Assembly: GCA_019057795.1 (NCBI GenBank)
Contig: JAHLWS010000065.1
Coordinates: 32,001 to 96,000 of the forward strand
Source: Promethearchaeota archaeon
GTDB lineage: Archaea > Asgardarchaeota > Lokiarchaeia > Sigyniarchaeales > SOKP01
Length of the DNA stretch: 64,000 nucleotides
Direction: 5' to 3'
Below are positions 2,476 to 49,701 of this stretch, in pieces. A program made the position numbers and the translations under genes. Below the pieces are notes generated by a model, which was not told the origin of the DNA, did not search any database, and was given only the letters and a program-made list of their open reading frames with translations. The stretch's first letter is position 1. Each line of letters begins with the position of its first letter.

Positions 2476-4839
2476 TCATCCATGAAGCACAGGAAACAGT
2501 GTATTTCTTAACTTATCATAAAATTCGGTTTCTGGCATGAGGTATTTTTTCATTGCTTGAATTTCATCCATATCAAACATTAGCTCATGAGGTAATTCTG
2601 TTTCTTTCAAATAAATCGTGAAAAATGGCTTATGCATTTTCATTGCATAATTAATTTCTTTCCTCACATATTCTGAATCTATTATATGAGGGGTTACAAA
2701 CACCAAAAAAGCATTACACTTATCTAAGTTTTCTACTATGGATTTCTTCCAATTCTCGCTAATAGGAATCCCTTCATCATACCAGATATTTAATCCAATT
2801 TTATTAAGATAATCTATAATAGGATAGACTTGGAGTTTGTCTGTATGAGAGTAGCTAGCAAAAACAAATGCCTCATCTCCTTCATATGCTTTAAATGGCA
2901 TTTGAAATTTGTGTGGATCAGATAGAAAACTCTCAACAATTAATTCCTCAAGAGAAGGATGTTCATTTATTGATATAATCTTATTCTCGTTAACAATATT
3001 TCCCAGAAATTTCATTAAAGTGGGATCTTTTTTAATTGCATCACAGAAATGGGTTAATTTCTGCTGAGCACTATATGAATGTCCTTGGAACATATAATAG
3101 ATGCAAATATGTTCTATTGCTGATATAAGGATTGTGTATTGACCAAATTTCACACGATCAAACGATTCTGAAAAAATTTGATCACAAAAAGTCATACAAG
3201 AGGTTAAAAACTCACCGAAGTGGGTCTCATCAATAGTCATATCCGCAGTAAAGGGGCAGGATAACACCATCTCACCCTCTTTTGTCATTATAGCAAATAA
3301 TATAGGCTGTTCTGCTTCCAATTTTGGATATTCCATCACACGTTTCTTGGTCATGTGTTTTATTTGATTAGCCAAACGAGCTAATTCTATACGTTCTCCC
3401 ATAGGGGCATTTGATTCTCTTAATCCCTCCCACACACTCAATTCATTTAATAATTTATCATGTTCTTCTGAAATACTCATAGCTAACCTATTAAGACCAA
3501 ATTTTTCAGCAATTTGCTGTCCTTTAGCCAATAATCGTCTAGCTTCTTCCAGGTTAGATGATATTAAAACCATTTTTGCTTGTAATAGATACGCTTCGGC
3601 TTGAAGCGAGTATGAATGTGTTTTTTCGGCAATATTTAATAGTCGACCAATATAATCTTTTATTTCATCCACGATTTCCATATCGTTGGTATTACGTAAA
3701 TCTACTAAGAGTATGTCACAAAGATTAATTATAGCAATTTTTTGCCCAGCATCCTCTTCAATTACCTCTTTTAATAATTTTTGAGCCTTAGCTAAATTGC
3801 TAATTCGCGGTTTAGTTTTCAACAATAAAGCTTTGCTTACACGATATAGTCTATTAACCCCTTTATTTTGTGTTTGATCGGAAATTTCTTTTATCTGTTG
3901 TAAGTATTCCTCTGCTTGGTTAATCTCATTTTTACTTATAGTTATTCGTAATAATGTGTACATAAATGAAGCGAGAAAAGGAATATTATGACCGACTTGC
4001 CTATACAATGTCAAACCCCGTTCACTAAATATTAAAGCTTGATCAAAATCACCTTGGCTATAATAAATATTGCCAATGCAGTCTAAAAAATATGCGATAT
4101 TTATTTTACCGCTATTAAGTTTCTCAGCAAGCGCTAAACCTCGTTTATAGTAGATGAGGGCATGATCCAATTCACCTCTTTGATTATAAAAAAATCCCAT
4201 ATGATAGAAAAGCCATGTAAGAAACGCATTAAAACCTTTTTCTTCAAGTGCAAGAGCTTTATCATAGTATTTCAGAGCTTGTTCCCAATCACCTTGAGAT
4301 AAGTAATTTAACCCAATATATTGATAAAATCGTGCAATTTCATGCTTATTACCTAGTTTTTTTTGCAGTGCTAATCCATATTTAAGATATTTTAAACTAA
4401 GCTCTAAATCCCTTTCAAGATAATTATCCACATTAATATAACCTTTTATAAGAGCAATAGCAGATTCTATCCTGTTGTGTTCAATTGTCGTTTCTAGAGT
4501 AATAGTTTTAAAAAATTTTTCACATTTCATAATCACCTCAAGACTCTCGTTATATCTCTCAAGATACATAAAAGCCTCAGCCATTTCAATGGATACATCA
4601 ATTGATTGGATAGGAGTTCCTAATTTTTCAGCGTCTTTATAAGTTTTTTTGGCAAGTTTGAGAGCATCTTCATGGAACCCTAGCTTGTTTAGGAGAGTAC
4701 ACTTAATGATATTGTTGGAAAGTTGATCTTGAGATGTAATACCTTCATTTTTCTCTATTTCTTTGATTATCTTAAAGGCTTCAATAAATTTACCTTCTTC
4801 CTTAAGATGTTTTGCTTGAAGCAATTCTTCAGGATCCAA
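2476..4839 (-). CDS. TPR-repeat protein with longin-like middle domain and C-terminal TIR domain
   Basis: TPR repeats (IGLNYLSQGDWEQALKYY); TIR motif FVFASYSHTD...IWYDEGI...SEYVRKEINYA; TTG start. Confidence 0.85.
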   Translation of the reverse strand: MDPEELLQAKHLKEEGKFIEAFKIIKEIEKNEGITSQDQLSNNIIKCTLLNKLGFHEDALKLAKKTYKDAEKLGTPIQSIDVSIEMAEAFMYLERYNESLEVIMKCEKFFKTITLETTIEHNRIESAIALIKGYINVDNYLERDLELSLKYLKYGLALQKKLGNKHEIARFYQYIGLNYLSQGDWEQALKYYDKALALEEKGFNAFLTWLFYHMGFFYNQRGELDHALIYYKRGLALAEKLNSGKINIAYFLDCIGNIYYSQGDFDQALIFSERGLTLYRQVGHNIPFLASFMYTLLRITISKNEINQAEEYLQQIKEISDQTQNKGVNRLYRVSKALLLKTKPRISNLAKAQKLLKEVIEEDAGQKIAIINLCDILLVDLRNTNDMEIVDEIKDYIGRLLNIAEKTHSYSLQAEAYLLQAKMVLISSNLEEARRLLAKGQQIAEKFGLNRLAMSISEEHDKLLNELSVWEGLRESNAPMGERIELARLANQIKHMTKKRVMEYPKLEAEQPILFAIMTKEGEMVLSCPFTADMTIDETHFGEFLTSCMTFCDQIFSESFDRVKFGQYTILISAIEHICIYYMFQGHSYSAQQKLTHFCDAIKKDPTLMKFLGNIVNENKIISINEHPSLEELIVESFLSDPHKFQMPFKAYEGDEAFVFASYSHTDKLQVYPIIDYLNKIGLNIWYDEGIPISENWKKSIVENLDKCNAFLVFVTPHIIDSEYVRKEINYAMKMHKPFFTIYLKETELPHELMFDMDEIQAMKKYLMPETEFYDKLRNTLFPVLHG

Positions 4840-27762: not shown

Positions 27763-28689
27763 ATAGTATTAAAGGTTTTATTCAACGACATTTTGGCGAC
27801 TTGAAATCAATCAGGCTATTTAATGGGATTTTCGATAAAAGAATTGACATATCAGGGAAAATATTTGCTCTTTTTGACAGAACAGCAGTTTGCCGGGCCA
27901 TGGTTCAGTTTTAAATTGATAGGCAAAAAAGTGGGCACTATTCCTGTTGTGTTGAAAAATATTGAACCAACGCCGATCTATAAAATGGTAAACAGTCGGA
28001 CGGGAACTGTGATCGACCGTATAACGCTAGATTTTGACATAAAAGAATACTTAAAAAAATTAATAAGAGAAAAGAAAATTCAACCGATTAGATTTAAAAA
28101 AGAAAATTCTTCGATTCGGTTATATATTGACGTCTTTAATCGTCCAAAAGTTCCTTATGTCAACACATTTTTCACATTAAAGAATATTTCCGATTTCAGC
28201 TTAATTGACTTCTCAATGTACTTTGTGTTTGACTTTGATATCAACGGATTAGAAGGTTTCGATAACGACTTATCTGGTTATGACGAAGAAAACGACATAC
28301 TTTACCAATACGATCATACAGGTTTATATGGTGGCTTCTCTCCTATATCAAAATCGACGAATTACGAAACTTGTTTAACGAAAGACTTTGAAATTAATAA
28401 CGAAAGATTGAATCTGTCAAATACTTTATATGGAGAGGCTGGAGAAATCTTATCGGCTTTGCAAATTGAGTTCAAAACTTTAAAGCCAGACCAATCGTTT
28501 CAGACTGCTTTAATTATTTCTGGAGCTTTAAGCAAAGAAGAATTAATTGAAAACATTAACGAAGGCAAAACCAATGCGATGAAATTTTTGTCGCAAGTAA
28601 ACAGATCAGTAAAATCAGAGCAAAGAAACAGACAAGAAGAAGCTTTCATTAAAATCAATCTCCAAAAATCAGTTGATTGTAATGAATAA
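27763..28689 (+). CDS. Uncharacterised beta-rich protein; candidate selenoprotein (in-frame TGA at 27802-27804)
   Basis: ORF 27823..28689 extends upstream in frame through a single TGA to a GGAGG (27748) / ATA (27763) start; SECIS-like hairpin in the 3' UTR. The coding call for 27823..28689 is firm; the extension is inferred. Confidence 0.55.
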
Positions 28690-30063: not shown

Positions 30064-32454
30064 TTGAAATATGTGGTTATGAATAATTCTAAACCAAAAA
30101 GAGAAATTACTATACCAGAGGAAATACGTCAAAAATGGCAAGGAATTGTAAATCTTATAGCTAAGATTATTAATGTTCCTGCTGCTTTAATTATGAAAAT
30201 CGATCCACCTTACATAGAAGTCTTTCGATCCAGCGAATCTGCAAACAATCCTTATAAAGTAAGAGACAGAGAGCATTTAGCTGGTCTTTATTGTGAAACC
30301 GTCATAAAAACAAGAGAAAAACTTTTGATTCCCAATGCTTTGAAGGATAAACACTGGAAAAAAAACCCAGACATCAAATTAGGAATGATCTCCTACTTAG
30401 GCTTTCCTTTACTTTGGCCTAATGATGAAGTTTTTGGTACAATTTGTGTACTTGATTCAAAAGAAAATAAATACAGCAAAGATTATAAGGATTTGATTTT
30501 ACTTTTCAAAGAAACTATTGAAGCCCATCTTACTCTTTTATATAAGAATCTCAAACTTGAAAATTTAATCGCAACAGGTAAAGAAATCGATCAGAAATTG
30601 AAAGATTCGGAGGAAAAATACAGATTAATCTCTGAAAACGCAAATGATATGATTCACATTTTTAACGAAAAGTTTGAGTTTGAATACATCAATGAACAAG
30701 CTTTTATGAAATTTATGGGATATTTAAAGGATGATTTAATTGGTAAATCGGGGTTAGAATTTATTCATCCAGCAGATTTAAAAAGAGCTAGTAAAGAGCT
30801 AAGAGGGGGTTTTAAAAGGGGTAAAGGAAGCCTTGAATTGAGATTAAGACATAAAAATGGCACTTATCGTTGGATTGAAGTTAGCGGATCGGTATATATA
30901 GATAAAGATGAAAAAAGGAAAGCTCTTTTAATTGGAAGGGATGTAACTAACCGTAAGAAAGTGGAGAAAAAGCTTAAGGAGAGTGAAGCCAGATTCAAGG
31001 GGATTTTTGAGTCTAAATTGATTGGTACATTTTTCTGGGATGCAAATGGCGATATTATCGACGCCAATGATGTCTATCTTAAGATGGTAGGATATTCTAA
31101 GGACGAAGTTCTTTCTGGAGCTGTACGCTGGAGGGATTTAACACCCTCGGAATATACAGATCTTGATAATAAAGCTTTAGAGGAGATTGCTACTACGGGT
31201 GTAATGACCCCCATCGAAAAAGAATACATTCGTAAAGATGGAAGCCGCTTTCCCATTCTTGTGGGTGGATCGGCATTACCTGGTTCTACACATGGCGGTG
31301 TGAGTTTTGTTTTGGATATTACTGAGCGAAAATTGTCAGAACAACGCTTAAAAGAATCTGAAGTAAAATATCGTCACTTGTTCGAAACATCTCCATATTT
31401 TATAGGTTTGCTGAATACAGAAGGAATTTTAATAGATTGCAATGACGCTATAAAGGATCTTCAATCTATCCATACTATAGAGGATGTAAAAGGTAAAAAT
31501 TTTATCGAAATTATTTTATTAAATGAGAAAAACAAACATCTTATCCCTATGTTCGAAAAATTTATAAAAAGTGTATTCGAAGGTGCTAATCAAGAAATGT
31601 TTGATTTTCGTTTAAGTAGGGCTATTGGAGGCCATTTGTGGCTATATGTTGAAGCTACTTTAATAGAAATCGAAAAGCAAAAATTCGTTCAGTTCATTAT
31701 GCAAGATATTACCGAGCGTAAGCGTTCAGAACAGTTACTTCAAGAATCTATGAAAGATTTAGCTAGAATTAATACCGAACTCGAGCAATTCACTTATGTC
31801 GCATCTCACGATCTAAAAGAACCTCTCCGAATGATTTCAAGTTTTGCTCAGCTTTTAGAAAAACAATATAAAGATAAATTAGATGAAGGTGCTAACGATT
31901 TCATTAGGTTTATTATTGAAGGAGTCGTAAGAATGCAAGATTTAATAAATAATTTATTGAAGTATTCAAAAATTGGAAAGTCAAGTAGGGAATTTGAAAA
32001 GGTTGACTTAAATAATGTTTTAAAGGATGCTATTGATAATCTAAAAAAAATAATTAATGAAACTAATGCTGAAGTTATTTACGATTCTTTACCTAGTTTA
32101 TTTGTTGATAAATATCAATTACTCCAAGTATTTCAAAATTTAATTTCTAACGCTATAAAATTCCACGGAGAAAGTCCTCCTCTTATTCATGTTTCAGCAA
32201 GACCTGATAATAAACATTGGGTTTTTTCTGTTCGCGATAATGGGATAGGGATTGATTCAAAAGACTATGAGCGAATTTTCATAATTTTTAAGCGTTTACA
32301 TACGAAAGATGAGTATGGTGGAACTGGAATAGGATTAGCTATATGTAAGAAAATTGTTGAACAATACGGGGGTAAAATATGGGTGGAATCTGAAGTTGGG
32401 AATGGTTCAACTTTTTACTTCTCAATCCCAAAAGAGATTGATATAAAAAGCTAA
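30064..32454 (+). CDS. GAF-PAS-PAS-PAS sensor histidine kinase
   Basis: GAF (YLGFPLLWP..GTICVLD), three PAS/PAC domains, SHDLKEPL H-box, and N, G1, F, G2 boxes. Confidence 0.93.
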   Translation: MKYVVMNNSKPKREITIPEEIRQKWQGIVNLIAKIINVPAALIMKIDPPYIEVFRSSESANNPYKVRDREHLAGLYCETVIKTREKLLIPNALKDKHWKKNPDIKLGMISYLGFPLLWPNDEVFGTICVLDSKENKYSKDYKDLILLFKETIEAHLTLLYKNLKLENLIATGKEIDQKLKDSEEKYRLISENANDMIHIFNEKFEFEYINEQAFMKFMGYLKDDLIGKSGLEFIHPADLKRASKELRGGFKRGKGSLELRLRHKNGTYRWIEVSGSVYIDKDEKRKALLIGRDVTNRKKVEKKLKESEARFKGIFESKLIGTFFWDANGDIIDANDVYLKMVGYSKDEVLSGAVRWRDLTPSEYTDLDNKALEEIATTGVMTPIEKEYIRKDGSRFPILVGGSALPGSTHGGVSFVLDITERKLSEQRLKESEVKYRHLFETSPYFIGLLNTEGILIDCNDAIKDLQSIHTIEDVKGKNFIEIILLNEKNKHLIPMFEKFIKSVFEGANQEMFDFRLSRAIGGHLWLYVEATLIEIEKQKFVQFIMQDITERKRSEQLLQESMKDLARINTELEQFTYVASHDLKEPLRMISSFAQLLEKQYKDKLDEGANDFIRFIIEGVVRMQDLINNLLKYSKIGKSSREFEKVDLNNVLKDAIDNLKKIINETNAEVIYDSLPSLFVDKYQLLQVFQNLISNAIKFHGESPPLIHVSARPDNKHWVFSVRDNGIGIDSKDYERIFIIFKRLHTKDEYGGTGIGLAICKKIVEQYGGKIWVESEVGNGSTFYFSIPKEIDIKS

Positions 32455-34481: not shown

Positions 34482-36002
34482 ATGCCTCGAAATAGTTTAG
34501 TTAATCAAGTTATTTTAATTATTATCGATGATGTTCGAGCATCCCATCTTTTTGATTTAATTAAGCAAAAAAAGCTACCTAATATAGCTCAGCTTGCTGA
34601 GAGTGGAATCTCGTGCCAAAATTGTATTACTTCTTTTCCGAGTATTACATTTCCTTGTTATAGTAATATAGTTATTGGATCATATTCAGGATACTTCTCT
34701 ATAGAAGGAAGTGGTATTCCGATGTATCATTGGGTTGGAAGAACCGACCCACCATCGGAAGGGAAAAGATTTCCTATTATTCGAAATTGTGGGAAGGGAA
34801 GTCATATTAGAAAGTTTAATAGTGATTTCGGACCAAATTGTCAAACTATTTTTGAACAGGCAGGAGAAGGAAATTTTTTAAGCTCACTAAATCTTCTTAA
34901 TCGAGGATCTGTAATGATTCCCCCAATCGAATACACCACTCAATCGATATTAAAGGGAGTTGAAGAAATATATAAAGATCCTAAAAAAATCTTTTCAAAC
35001 AAAGAAGTGCCAAAAGTAACAGTTGCTTATATACCTAAAACAGACGACCTTATGCATAAAAAAGGGTTCTCTCATCCAAAATACATTAATGAAATTATTA
35101 AATGCGATGAATCTATTGGCTTAATAATTAAAATGTTAAAGGAAAAGGGGTATTTTGACTCGACTGCTATTGGAATTATTTCGGATCATGGAAATTATAA
35201 AACAGAAAAATTGTATGACATTGAACCTTATTTTAAAGAAAAAGGTCTAATGCAGTACTTACCTAGAAAAGGAATTGGTGATTTCGATGCTAGTTTTGGT
35301 TCAGTTGGATTTTTTAACTTTCCAGGGAAAGATTGGCATCATCATCCAACTACTAAACAATTAAAAGAATTTATTCCAAGCGGTTCAGGAAAGTCGAAAT
35401 TGAATTTATTTGAGACTTTATGGAAGATTCCAGGCGTGAAATTGATGTACTACCGGGACGACAATAACACGCCTGACAAAGGGATAATATATCTGGAACA
35501 GCGGAACGAGAAATCAGGAAAAATTTCAAAAAACATTATTGAATATGAGGGTCATGGAAAAAATCAACGAACGAAATATATCATTGATGAAAAAGATTTA
35601 TACAAATACGAAGACTACGAAGAATCCGCTGTGCTTTTAGATAATAAGGCTCATAATATTGATGAGTGGTTAGAAGGAACGAATAAAATAGATTTTCCAA
35701 TGATAGTAGACCAAATTCCTCGATATTTTAAAAATCCCCGTTCTTGCGATATTATGATATCCACGATTGGCGAATATGGATTTGGTTATGAACATGGGAT
35801 GTCAATGCCTCATTCTCCATACTCTCACGATATAGGACTTAAAAAGTCGATGACTGTGCCATTCATCATTGGAGGGTCTCTAAACATTCCTTCTACGGAG
35901 CTATCGTATTGTAAAACGACGGATATGGTTCCAACGCTCTTAGATTTATTAGGAGAAAAACCACATTTCAGCGTTGTTGGAAAATCTGTATTTAAGTATT
36001 AA
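34482..36002 (+). CDS. Alkaline phosphatase / nucleotide pyrophosphatase superfamily protein
   Basis: IIIDD, FPSITFP, DDLMH, ISDHG and SH motifs. Confidence 0.85.
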   Translation: MPRNSLVNQVILIIIDDVRASHLFDLIKQKKLPNIAQLAESGISCQNCITSFPSITFPCYSNIVIGSYSGYFSIEGSGIPMYHWVGRTDPPSEGKRFPIIRNCGKGSHIRKFNSDFGPNCQTIFEQAGEGNFLSSLNLLNRGSVMIPPIEYTTQSILKGVEEIYKDPKKIFSNKEVPKVTVAYIPKTDDLMHKKGFSHPKYINEIIKCDESIGLIIKMLKEKGYFDSTAIGIISDHGNYKTEKLYDIEPYFKEKGLMQYLPRKGIGDFDASFGSVGFFNFPGKDWHHHPTTKQLKEFIPSGSGKSKLNLFETLWKIPGVKLMYYRDDNNTPDKGIIYLEQRNEKSGKISKNIIEYEGHGKNQRTKYIIDEKDLYKYEDYEESAVLLDNKAHNIDEWLEGTNKIDFPMIVDQIPRYFKNPRSCDIMISTIGEYGFGYEHGMSMPHSPYSHDIGLKKSMTVPFIIGGSLNIPSTELSYCKTTDMVPTLLDLLGEKPHFSVVGKSVFKY

Positions 36003-36151: not shown

Positions 36152-36205
36152 GTGAAAGCTAATAACATAATTATAGTCCCTGAAACTCATTGGGATCGCG
36201 AATAG
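36152..36205 (+). pseudogene. Orphan copy of alpha-mannosidase exon 1 (VKANNIIIVPETHWDRE*)
   Basis: 15/17 aa and 39/51 nt identical to 37642..37692; ends at the codon where the micro-intron sits. Confidence 0.85.
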
Positions 36206-36207
36206 AA

Positions 36208-37365
36208 CTATTTTTGTTGAGATCGAGAGGTTTTTATATCCCATTCCTCACAGAGTTTATAAAAGGAACCAATGGATACTTTAAATTTTTTAATTAAATG
36301 GGAAATTGGATACTTATCAATTAAACATTGTAGATTCTCCTTATTTACTACTGCTTCTTTTAGGCATGGAATCACATTCATATCTCTCTCATTAAATGTT
36401 CTCCTCTTTCTGGGCATACTGTTTTTATAGTTCCTCATCATTTCATTAAATAATAATGCCCCTAATGATAATCTCCAATGTGATTTAGTGGCAATAATAT
36501 TATCAAAATTACTTATTTTACCTTTCTCATATTGAATTTTAACTTCATATTGAATATTTAATTTCAACCTTATTTGTTCGAGAAATTCTTTAGAGCCACT
36601 TGTTATTCTAGTACTGTTAGCATTGCCATCCCCATCATAATAACCAAGAACCCAGGCCAAAAATAACTTATGATTAATAGGAGTTTTTTTATTAAAAATT
36701 ATAGGAATCGATTTTCTTAAAGACTTTGAACTTGAGAACCCAATATTCATTAAATCTTCAACCATTGGTTTACATCTAAAACGCAAATAAGCCAATTGAT
36801 ATGTTCTCCATTCTTCTTTATTTTTCTTTGTTCTATCTCGTTCTTTAATAAGTATAGGATCAAGATTTAGGGCTTTACAAAATCTTATTATTTGATCTTT
36901 ATCCTTAATTGAAAGCTCCATAGATATCAAATACCAAGGTTTTCCCCGATAATCCATTACTACAGAACCGTCTGCGTATAAAAAACCTAACCAATAAGCT
37001 TTTTCAAGTGTATCTACTTTCCTAAAAAAATCAGCTCTAAGATCATCGCTATATTGCTGATTTGAGTATTCTTTCAAGTTTTTATTTAACTCTTGATATC
37101 TTTTAATAAATAATAAACAATTAATTACTTTATTTCCTAAGCTTTTCTTTAGGTTATTTTGGAATTTTTCTAAATTTTGCTCTGAAAATTTGTAATTTGG
37201 ATTATATCCACGAACTTTCGAGTTGGTGATTCTTTGTTTTAGATCTGATAAATAAGTCGATCCATGTCCTAAAAGTATACTAGCTTTGGGTAAAGGTCCT
37301 AACTCATTTACCAAATCGTCTATTAAATTCAAAGTGCTATAAACACTTTCTTTTTTAACAGTCAT
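36208..37365 (-). CDS. Double-motif LAGLIDADG homing endonuclease
   Basis: AYWLGFLYADGSV and AWVLGYYDGDGNA motifs; likely start MTVKK at 37365 (ORF open to 37467). Confidence 0.85.
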   Translation of the reverse strand: MTVKKESVYSTLNLIDDLVNELGPLPKASILLGHGSTYLSDLKQRITNSKVRGYNPNYKFSEQNLEKFQNNLKKSLGNKVINCLLFIKRYQELNKNLKEYSNQQYSDDLRADFFRKVDTLEKAYWLGFLYADGSVVMDYRGKPWYLISMELSIKDKDQIIRFCKALNLDPILIKERDRTKKNKEEWRTYQLAYLRFRCKPMVEDLMNIGFSSSKSLRKSIPIIFNKKTPINHKLFLAWVLGYYDGDGNANSTRITSGSKEFLEQIRLKLNIQYEVKIQYEKGKISNFDNIIATKSHWRLSLGALLFNEMMRNYKNSMPRKRRTFNERDMNVIPCLKEAVVNKENLQCLIDKYPISHLIKKFKVSIGSFYKLCEEWDIKTSRSQQK

Positions 37366-37638
37366 AATTTGAATATGGAATTGATCTTTATAAACTGAAT
37401 AACATCCATAATTTTTTCTAATATCGTTTCTAATATTCATTCCAATAAGAATTAGGGCTCCAATCACGCATTCAAGGTCTTTTATACATAGAAATTAGAA
37501 AACTTATTTAGTTGATATTCACCCTCTTGGGCAGCTTAAATATTGTATTATTCCTCTCTTTTCAGCAAGTAAGCAATATAAAACATCAAAAATTATGAGT
37601 ATTAAACTATGAAAAAGAAAAAAAGATGATAAAAGACT

Positions 37639-40464
37639 ATGGTGAGAGCAAATCATATAATAATTGTTCCTGAGACCCACTGGGACCGTGAAACTTTGTA
37701 TAATTAATATACAAAGCACGATTGGTATCTCCCGTTTCAAGAGTATAGAGCAAAACTAGTTCTCATGATGGATAAGCTCTTGGATATCCTAAGAAGCGAT
37801 CCAGATTATAAAAATTTCACTCTTGATGGACAAACTATTCCGATAGAGGACTATCTTGAAGTCCGACCTGAATTTGAAGATGAGATTAAAAAGTATGTAA
37901 AAGAAAGGCGGCTTTCGATTGGGCCTATGTATATTTTACCAGATGAATTTTTGGTAAGCGGCGAATCTTTGATTAGGAACTTAATAATTGGACACCAAAT
38001 TGCTAAGAGATTTGGAAGGGTTATGAAAGCAGGTTACATCCCTGATCCTTTTGGCCACATTGCTCAATTACCTCAAATACTTCAAGGATTTGAAATCCCT
38101 TCGATTTTATTCTGGCGAGGGTTTGGTAACGAATTCGTAGAAAATAACCTAAACATTGAATTTATTTGGAATTCCCCCGGAGATTCTAATTCTATTTTGG
38201 GAATATTTTTGAAGCAGAGCTACGGTTCGGTTGCTGATCTTAATTTATCAAAAAGAAGCGGAAAATATAAACTGGCGCTTCATAAGATAAAAAGGGTTGT
38301 TTCTGAGTTCGAAAAATTCACAGCTACATCCTATGTTCTTTTGAATAGCGGTTCAGATCATCACGAAGCTCGATCGGAGATTCCTGAAATAGTTAGACAA
38401 TGGAACGAAATGTATCCCGAGAAACTTTTAGAACAAAACGATTTTGAATATTATGTCGATAAAGTATTACATAGTAATCCACAGTTAAAACAGTTTAAAG
38501 GCGAATTAAGAGGTGGAAAGTACGCACATCTACTTTCAGGGGTATTTTCAGCTCGTATGTGGATCAAGCAGAGAAACACGGCAATCGAATATCTGTACGA
38601 AAAATATACGGAACCCTTATCAACAATTATATGGTCTCTCGATAAATATAAGGAATTTAATTACCCTCAAGCTTATATGCTCACAGGTTTGAAATGGCTT
38701 ATCAAAAACCACCCTCACGATAGCATATGTGGCTGTTCTATTGATCAGGTTCACAAAGAAATGGAGACTAGGTTTGATTGGGCGGAGCAAATCGGTAATG
38801 AAGTGTTTAAAAATTCAATATTGTATCTATACAATCTGATTACAGTTGAGGAAGACGAGAAAAAAATTCCGATCGTAGTATTTAATCCTCTTCCTTGGAA
38901 ACGTAAAGATATCGCAAATTTCCACATAATATCCAACACTAAAAAAGCTGGTTTTAAAAATCCAGACGCTTTCAAAATTCTCGACTCCGAAGGAAACGAG
39001 ATCGCATACCAATACGTTCAAATCAGCGAAGAGCCAAGATATAGATTAATTGGATCGGTTAGTTATTATTGCTCGTTTTTAGCCGAGGTTCCTGCTTGTG
39101 GATATAAGTGTTATTATATCGTACCAGGAGAAAAACCCGAAGAACCTGTAGTAAAGAGTAAAAAATTGAAGTTAGGTATAAATAGCTTAGAAAATCAGTT
39201 CTACAAAATCAACATAAGTTTTAAGGGACAAATCGACGTTTTAGATAAGGAAAGTAAAGTTTTGTACGAAAATATTTGTTATTTTGAGGATATAGGAGAT
39301 TGGGGGGATGAATATGACTTTTCGGGGCCATATGAAAATCAAACTGATTTAAAATTCACCTCAGAAGATCTGAATATTCTAGAAATAGCACCGTTTTTAG
39401 ACGGGGTCACCCAAAAAACGATTAGAATAAGAGCAAATCTCAATTTACCTACTTCTTTAACCGAGGATAGATATAGTAGAGACGAATATCTGATTTCAAA
39501 CTTAATCGATATCTATATAACGGTATATAAGGACATTAAACGAGTTGATTTTAAGATTGAATTAGAAAACAATAGTAAAGACCACCGAATACGAGTACTT
39601 TTTCCTTCAAAAATTAAATCTAAAAATGTAGATTCCGATGGTCATTTTTATGTCATTTCGCGAGATGTTGAGATGCCAAAATCTGAGAAATGGGCTCAAC
39701 AACCCGTACCTACTAACCATCAGAAAGATTTTGTCTCTGTTAACGATACATCAAGAACTTTTTCGGTTATAAACAAAGGATTACCCGAATATGAGGCAGT
39801 TATAAATAAAGATGGAACGATTTCGCTAGCTATTACCTTACTGCGGTGTATTGAATGGCTTTCAAGACACGATTTTACCTCGAGAAGAAGTAACGCAGGT
39901 CCGGACCTAAATACTCCCGAAGCTCAATGTCTTGGAAAGCATACTTTCGAACTTTCTCTCGTTATCGAAGGAAACAAACCTAATTGGTTAGATTCGAACG
40001 CTCACATAAAAGGTAAAGAATTTAACAATCCTTTTGAGGTTGTGGTTCCCTCGATAGTTAGAACCTCAATAAGAGCTTCGAATAAAGTCGTTTTAGCCCC
40101 TTTTGGACTAATTTCATATTTTAAACCATCAACTCGTCAACCTTTAAAACCTTATTTACCTACCAAATTAAGCTTCCTTGAAATCGATAACACAAAAATA
40201 ATGCTTAGTGCTTTGAAAAAATCGGAAAAGGGAGAATCTTTAATCGTTAGAGTTTATAACATCTCTTCAACCACTCAAAAAGCAAGGTTAACGTTACACG
40301 AGAAAACTTCCATCAAAAGTGCGGATATTGTAAACTTTTTGGAAGAAAAGCCAGAAAACGAAATTAAGGCGAAAATTGTTTCAAGTAAAGGGAATCATCT
40401 TGATCTAACTCTGGAACCGCACATAATAGTAACGATAAAACTTGAGCTTGATAATAATTATTAA
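37639..40464 (+). CDS. GH38 alpha-mannosidase (MngB-like); join(37639..37692,37723..40464)
   Basis: The spliced N-terminus MVRANHIIIVPETHWDRE|WYLPFQEYRAKL restores the HWDREWY Zn motif; LDGQT, PDPFGH and HDSICGCS motifs also present. Confidence 0.9.
37693..37722 (+). other. Putative 30-nt BHB mRNA intron
   Basis: CGUG-AA^A-CUUUGUAUA-AUUAA-UAUACAAAG-CACG-AU^U: perfect 9-bp stem, 4-bp central helix, two 3-nt bulges; contains an in-frame TAA. Confidence 0.85.
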
Positions 40465-48734: not shown

Positions 48735-49701
48735 TCATCCTATCATTGTTCTCCAGGCGTCATAGCCTTCTTTTTCGATAGCCTTGGCGATAGATTCTTG
48801 TATTTCTTCATTTTCTGCTAAAGCGATTACTAAACCACCCCGACCCGTCCCCGTCATTTTAGCTCCAACCGCTCCATTTTTTAGTGCTATTTCTACCAAT
48901 TTATCGTTTATTTCTCCTGAAACTGTGATTCTTTGAAGTAATTTGTGGTTTTGATTCATTAATTTGCCTATAGTGGTAATATCACCTTCAAGCAATGCTT
49001 TTTTTGCTTTTTCTGATAAATCCTTATATTCGTTTAGTATCTTCTCAAATTCTTCTGAATTAGTTTCCTTTAAACGCCGAACATCAGCAACTACTTCCGT
49101 TGTTGAAGCTGTTATTCCTGAATTTGCGATTGTCAAGAGCATCTTTCTTGGCGATTGAAGGAAGTCCATCGTATTTTTTCCACCACTTAAATTTTTCACA
49201 AACCAAATCAAACCACCATAAGTCGAAGCCGTGTTATCAATACCAGAAGGGGTTCCGTGATAAGCCTTCTCTCCTTCGTAAGCGGCTTCGTTTATCTTTT
49301 CATCGTCTAACTTTAGATTAAAGCTATCGTTGATTGCACGAGCGAGAGAAGTACATTGAGCGGCAGAAGCACCAACTCCACTCGTAGCGATTAAATCTCC
49401 TGTGAAAGTGATTTCAAGTTTTTGACTCTCTGTATCTATTTTTAAATAATGGACTACATTGCGAATAGATTGCATTGCCTCATCGTATTTCTTTTTTTTA
49501 TAACCCGGTGTAGCGGGTCTCTGATCGTCGACAGTCCAGTTTTGTCCATTAACAACTTTAACATCTGCGGTTGTATAGGAACCTAATGCCGAAGCAATAG
49601 CGGGAAGACCATAAACTACAAAATGATTGCGTCTACTTCCGAAGTTGGAAGTAAATTTCGCCAAAAAGAATGGTCTTACCATATCCTTTTCCAGTTCCCG
49701 T
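48735..49701 (-). CDS. mvk: Mevalonate kinase; join(complement(49657..49701),complement(48735..49625))
   Basis: Spliced N-terminus (M)GTGKGYGKTILFGE|HFVVYGLPAIA; GVGASAA, HGTPSGIDN and KMTGTGRGG motifs; probable ACG start after GGAGGTG. Confidence 0.88.
49626..49656 (-). other. Putative 31-nt BHB-like mRNA intron
   Basis: GGCG-AA^A-UUUACUUCC-AACUUC-GGAAGUAGA-CGCA-AU^C: 9-bp stem with one G-U pair, 3 of 4 central pairs; frameshifts the gene unless removed. Confidence 0.8.

Follow-up and report, generated by a model that had tools for sequence, protein, structure and literature searches.

In the collaborative homing of phages, a free-standing endonuclease is paired with a group I intron that lacks an open reading frame (ORF) and occupies the same site (PMC3984707). 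Mobile endonuclease ORFs of fungal mitochondria import a foreign gene end, as described for atp6 of Allomyces and for atp6, atp9, cox2, and nad3 of Glomus (PMC3630166). Archaeal rRNA introns of the bulge-helix-bulge (BHB) type encode LAGLIDADG endonucleases of the I-DmoI type, and the cbf5 pre-mRNA of Crenarchaeota carries a BHB intron of 16 to 44 nucleotides (nt) in which either boundary follows the second base of its bulge (PMC2738675); according to a further report, this is the only BHB intron in an archaeal mRNA (PMC7714728). Homing and mRNA both go unmentioned in a 2026 preprint that deals with Asgard tRNA introns (10.64898/2026.10.13.758758). Here, we analyze a stretch of 64,000 nt (the window; positions 32001 to 96000 of contig C65) from the 4.95-Mb metagenome-assembled genome (MAG) of a Promethearchaeota archaeon, a Loki-type Asgard (G000; G, L, and X numbers label genomes, loci, and metagenome or RNA runs, respectively). 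Within it, a 1,520-nt insertion in a GH38 alpha-mannosidase gene combines a LAGLIDADG endonuclease gene, a spacer, a foreign first exon, and a 30-nt micro-intron of predicted BHB type. Our best reading of this locus, which we consider probable, is collaborative homing with replacement of the 5′ end of the gene, cleavage being a predicted step. We know of no route for moving so short an intron.

The insertion (36203 to 37722) sits at the E-W codon junction of the GH38 gene and was delimited by alignment with empty alleles and by sequence joints that skip 1,520 nt. In the empty allele of G026, a phosphodiesterase gene is followed by a spacer, exon 1, and then directly the WY codons with nothing between, which identifies 36203 to 37722 as an insertion and the orphan exon left of it in G000 as the recipient's own; the upstream flank in G026 likewise matches that of the orphan. 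Such empty-site relatives, with the 36152-type exon directly abutting the WY codons, had been predicted from the letters of the window and were found. The orphan (36152 to 36202, + strand) is the recipient's native GH38 start, is identical to the G026 empty allele at 50 of 51 nt, and ends exactly at the intron insertion site. Mis-assembly, an early concern, is excluded by metagenomes X3 and X5, which come from two other studies and contain contigs joining the orphan exon to the endonuclease gene as well as joints omitting exactly 1,520 nt, so that both filled and empty alleles are present in two independent samples (X1 was left out of this count, as it may be the source sample). The phosphodiesterase-family gene (34482 to 36002, + strand; identified by Pfam) forms the left flank outside the insertion and, as the conserved upstream neighbor, defines the empty site; in most empty alleles it ends 80 to 210 nt upstream of exon 2. 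At L069 (G005), an unrelated 287-amino-acid membrane-protein ORF lies 1.1 kb upstream of GH38 exon 1 and fills the gap between the phosphodiesterase gene and an intron-only GH38 allele.

The two copies of exon 1 (36152 to 36202 and 37642 to 37692) differ at 12 of 51 nt, with translations as first reported; ten of the differences fall at third positions, and nine of those are synonymous. The first copy is followed by TAG, and the stop of an antisense gene (36208 to 36210) lies 5 nt beyond. Coordinates and counts in the original prediction all held when the sequence was rechecked, and small details of its description were revised. The sequence given for the second exon 1 from 37642 was correct, but its functional start is the ATG at 37639; furthermore, this exon is indeed a second copy, but a foreign, donor-derived origin fits it better than recoding. 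The foreign exon (37639 to 37692, + strand), whose last 9 nt form the 5′ half of the BHB motif, matches the closest empty alleles at only 38 to 39 of 51 nt, whereas exon 2 is about 95% identical to them from its first codon on. Against the sister empty allele the figures are 38 of 51 nt for the donor exon and 50 of 51 for the orphan. All 27 intron alleles have the exon 1 end GACCGTGAA, compared with 6 of 120 empty alleles. Exon 2 (37723 to 40464, + strand; Pfam GH38 domains) is the recipient's own, and removal of the insert leaves a single open GH38 frame of 931 amino acids from ATG 37639, collinear with intronless orthologues. A foreign 5′ end is fused in frame and the native end is orphaned.

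Between the endonuclease gene and the rebuilt GH38 gene, the spacer (37366 to 37638) presumably holds divergent promoters for both, as their orientation suggests; it differs from the upstream region of the native gene, with 13 of 30 nt identical. A sigma-70 promoter scan, a method ill-suited to archaea, gave counts at chance level. As with the mobile ORFs of Allomyces and Glomus, insertion has made a hybrid host gene and orphaned the native end; unlike them, the GH38 cassette replaces the 5′ end and a presumed promoter, carries its endonuclease in antisense, divergent orientation, and has an intron at the junction. Orphan exons are carried by nine distinct loci, ending at or just before the E codon in eight and retaining six extra bases in one, and the left breakpoint lies at the intron site or at most 6 nt from it in all nine. 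The orphan is absent at loci with a C-terminally truncated endonuclease, and most orphan-less loci lack the last 55 to 60 residues of the enzyme, a pattern that a single deletion would produce. The bases that follow the orphan resemble exon 2, a likeness attributed to chance, since they belong to conserved C-terminal codons of the endonuclease. At L184 (2529 to 2560), the endonuclease lacks its own stop codon, and its frame closes at an antisense stop located within the orphan.

The micro-intron (37693 to 37722, + strand) contains an in-frame TAA and is predicted to fold with an exon helix of 1 bp, a central helix of 4 bp, two bulges of 3 nt each, and a stem of 9 bp; in both bulges, the boundary follows the second base. 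With so short an exon-side helix, the motif counts as relaxed. Among 20 orthologous introns, pairing holds in 94% of cells, and compensatory changes occur at six of the nine stem pairs. This lies above all 500 shuffles and all slid controls, the shuffle test being inflated by relatedness. The bulge geometry, the conserved reading frame restored on removal, and two genes for the tRNA-splicing endonuclease EndA in G000 (PF01974 above cutoff) agree with a BHB intron, and intron-bearing tRNAs are present in the same genome. Similar to the intron of cbf5, this is a short BHB intron within a gene that encodes a protein, with the same boundary geometry and EndA present. The cbf5 intron was gained once and inherited without an endonuclease, whereas the Asgard introns are polymorphic and patchily distributed, occur in several genes, and are linked to endonucleases, with splicing predicted. 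An Rfam scan of the intron returned no match of note. The whole 1,520 nt was also considered as one large BHB intron and rejected because the orphan end and the 3′ boundary form no intron stem. In a genome-wide census based on the BHB motif alone, AT-rich false positives dominated and no length peak appeared. At the same GH38 E-W site, L212 (829 to 857) holds a different hairpin insert of 29 nt, bordered by sequences that nearly repeat the end of the exon, which may represent the separate birth of an intron.

The antisense gene (36208 to 37365, − strand) encodes a free-standing LAGLIDADG endonuclease of 385 amino acids. The original reading as a double-motif gene was sound: both motifs are intact, with acidic residues D125 and D239 (alignment A4 numbering), and the protein matches Pfam LAGLIDADG_3, as do 22 of 23 family members. 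ATG 37365 is most likely the start, in a frame that extends to GTG 37467. The enzyme has a helical N-terminal domain and a helix-turn-helix-like C-terminal domain, and its structure model (predicted local distance difference test score, 89) resembles I-AniI, I-SceI, and I-DmoI. A sequence search of PDB with the endonuclease found no match; matches came from the fold search alone, in which all 50 listed PDB entries were LAGLIDADG enzymes or their inteins (best E value, 1.6e-6; 12 to 18% identity). Ratios of nonsynonymous to synonymous substitution rates of 0.18 to 0.25 among orthologues point to purifying selection. The combination of a BHB intron with a LAGLIDADG enzyme, as well as the fold match to I-DmoI, recalls the rRNA introns; at GH38, by contrast, the endonuclease is encoded outside the intron, on the opposite strand and upstream of exon 1, and its host is a protein-coding gene. 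Intron-encoded endonucleases of the I-DmoI type were ruled out because the ORF is outside the intron at every locus. An intein-encoded enzyme was likewise ruled out, as the gene is antisense to its host gene and Pfam scans of the endonuclease locus and family members found no Hint (intein) family. Elsewhere in G000, contigs C78, C54, and C43 (L032, L033, and L034 to L036) hold two long LAGLIDADG ORFs of 566 and 724 amino acids with unrelated N-terminal parts, two decayed remnants, and, near C43:25318, a doubtful 31-nt hairpin.

The proposed link between endonuclease and intron was borne out in a survey of 133 resolved GH38 alleles. Nine have both, 17 have the intron only, 107 have neither, and none has the endonuclease only; Fisher's test on a first subset of GH38 alleles gave a p value of about 1e-6, which is overstated because of kinship. 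When endonuclease orthologues were instead chosen by protein similarity alone, all eight with DNA adjoined an intron-bearing GH38 gene, seven of them with an orphan, two of the eight loci having been known beforehand. The distribution of the intron is patchy. On the exon 2 tree, intron state needs 17 changes for 18 rows, equal to shuffled labels, and the intron does not cluster, a pattern that fits repeated gain. The same layout recurs in many hosts with endonucleases that are 57 to 79% identical, and inserts are 70 to 82% alike where their hosts are 93 to 95% alike. Furthermore, the enzyme at L184 groups with one whose host is much more distantly related, an indication that transfer between lineages has taken place. 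Stages of decay are represented by endonucleases that are frameshifted, truncated, or reduced to remnants and by orphans that have acquired stop or missense changes. At G005, G009, and L333, intron-only alleles retain a native exon 1 and flank.

The original prediction had also proposed that other LAGLIDADG genes would lie beside genes with micro-introns, and they do so at EF-1alpha, aIF2gamma, and fwdA. Paralogues in the endonuclease tree cluster by neighboring target gene (GH38 clade support, 99). Inserts of 29 to 33 nt in the P-loops of EF-1alpha and aIF2gamma, both essential and single copy, have canonical BHB geometry, and some of them are frame-shifting. EF-1alpha carries a BHB-shaped insert of 31 to 33 nt in its P-loop in six genomes, with an intact, frameshifted, or remnant endonuclease upstream in four of these six alleles versus 0 of 31 intronless ones. 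For aIF2gamma, an endonuclease accompanies 3 of 11 intron alleles versus 0 of 20 resolved intronless alleles; comparison of G028 with G000 shows exon 1 proteins only 60% identical and exon 2 DNA 94% identical, so that exon 1 is foreign there too. At fwdA, two of three intron alleles have a downstream endonuclease or a remnant of one. In the yjbQ-like gene of G026 (L062:1051 to 3069) and the P-type ATPase gene of G011 (L054:1216 to 2758), the endonuclease is flanked on one side by a foreign 3′ end in frame and on the other by the native 3′ end, now an orphan, matching the 3′-end layout of Allomyces and Glomus.

Further inserts were observed at additional genes. In the window, a 31-nt BHB-shaped insert interrupts the N-terminal motif of mevalonate kinase (49626 to 49656, − strand), the frame is restored on its removal, and no LAGLIDADG gene lies beside it in the window. 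A hairpin insert of about 30 nt occurs in the GGD-DT motif of phosphofructokinase in G000 (C70, about 27780 to 27810, + strand); the gene is intact in G016, with a related endonuclease upstream (L053). Other candidate BHB inserts in G000 are 29 nt long in an HE-motif protein (C49 near 81154, − strand) and 30 nt long in acetyl-CoA synthetase (C75 near 67905, − strand). In L158 of G015 (about 4560 to 4592), the P-loop of EF-1alpha is interrupted at another position, which precedes the usual one by a few codons, and no endonuclease lies close to it. Among 71 genomes of the family that carry urocanase (hutU), a single allele had a short insertion containing in-frame stops, and the four loci examined all lacked an endonuclease; in that allele (L402 of G139), there are two such stops, and no endonuclease was detected in 8.5 kb.

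We propose that the LAGLIDADG enzyme cuts intronless GH38 at or next to the E-W junction of the conserved HWDREWY motif; the fixed breakpoint and the locus-specific clades are indirect hints that it would cleave the empty allele and spare the filled one. Repair would then import the donor segment, comprising the endonuclease gene, divergent spacer, donor exon 1, and BHB micro-intron, with exon 2 as the right homology arm, and would leave the recipient's exon 1 behind as an orphan. The first left join was probably illegitimate; later, the orphan and the native upstream DNA could serve as a left arm, which would explain the likeness of each orphan to the local empty allele, and with both arms the 1,520-nt block could home like an ordinary mobile intron. 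By splitting the target, the intron would shield the new allele, and host EndA and ligase would excise it from the mRNA to restore the mannosidase, as its structure, its covariation, and the intact exon 2 suggest. Subsequent decay or deletion of the endonuclease, or copying of the intron alone, may account for the many intron-only alleles, and those with a native exon may stem from short-tract conversion or from recombination between the two exon copies. As in phage collaborative homing, a free-standing endonuclease adjoins a gene whose ORF-less intron fills the presumed target, and the two would travel by co-conversion. Here, unlike in phages, the setting is a cellular archaeal chromosome, the enzyme is of the LAGLIDADG type, the endonuclease-free intron is a 30-nt hairpin that needs host proteins and is not a group I ribozyme, and an entire 5′ exon is imported while the old one is orphaned. 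The GH38 cassette would work like collaborative homing, yet it is no member of the phage systems.

Several observations weigh against this proposal. Repeated precise intron loss could be a partial source of the patchiness, and the six empty alleles noted above carry the intron-type exon end. One genome has an endonuclease at fwdA without an intron, and the relatives at yjbQ and the P-type ATPase gene lie intronless between their duplicated 3′ gene ends, so that the family can home without introns. These members, together with the many third-position differences of the donor exon and the 17 of 26 intron alleles that have no adjacent endonuclease, would suit an enzyme that cuts near the GH38 start, with the diverged donor exon 1 providing protection and the intron merely co-converted from the donor lineage. 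We regard such a passenger role as unlikely, given that the left breakpoint falls at or a few nucleotides from the intron site in nine loci, that no GH38 allele among 133 has the endonuclease alone, and that the pairing of endonuclease and intron recurs at three other genes.

The single RNA run, X18, covers exon 2 only, from 37897 onward and short of the junction, and shows no spliced read; gene callers place an internal ATG at 37765. The 30-nt insert might on these grounds remain unspliced, as a gene-disrupting scar or with translational bypass, exon 2 being read from an internal start. That start would lose the conserved GH38 HWD motif, and compensatory changes in the stem and canonical BHB geometry in the P-loops of two essential single-copy translation factors speak against this account, which we regard as very improbable. 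Accidental duplication, a selfish gene inserted non-specifically, or chimerism of the assembly might be suspected in a MAG with 7.5% contamination, but these accounts are already largely refuted by junctions bridged in independent samples, by recurrence of the layout in many hosts with diverged endonucleases, and by endonuclease clades that are locus specific; we give them almost no credence. Collaborative homing with 5′-end replacement remains our preferred explanation for GH38. A literature search, with most subscription journals outside its scope, turned up neither a description of BHB introns in Asgard mRNAs nor one of cassettes of this kind.

The cassette had been offered as a route for the spread of micro-introns. 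Given the intronless family members, it accounts for the spread of some introns and not for their origin, and most introns lack an adjacent endonuclease. For Loki-type Asgard archaea more broadly, we lean, by a little more than an even chance, toward a family of free-standing LAGLIDADG enzymes, each specific to its locus, by which micro-introns that lack an ORF and are spliced by EndA are driven into conserved motifs of many protein-coding genes, essential translation factors among them, with introns outlasting the enzymes. At GH38, a micro-intron is seen in the act of spreading in natural populations; the candidate enzyme and its predicted target make the mechanism testable in vitro, and the endonuclease family supplies LAGLIDADG scaffolds that are new and whose targets are predictable. 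Asgard MAG genes that look split or truncated, such as those for EF-1alpha, aIF2gamma, fwdA, GH38, and mevalonate kinase, may be intact spliced genes. Movement of gene ends and promoters appears to link Loki lineages that have diverged, and single-gene trees can be distorted as a result. If the broader reading is true, these cassettes would constitute a type of mobile element that has gone unrecognized and would give the archaeal sister group of eukaryotes a working route to mRNAs that contain introns.

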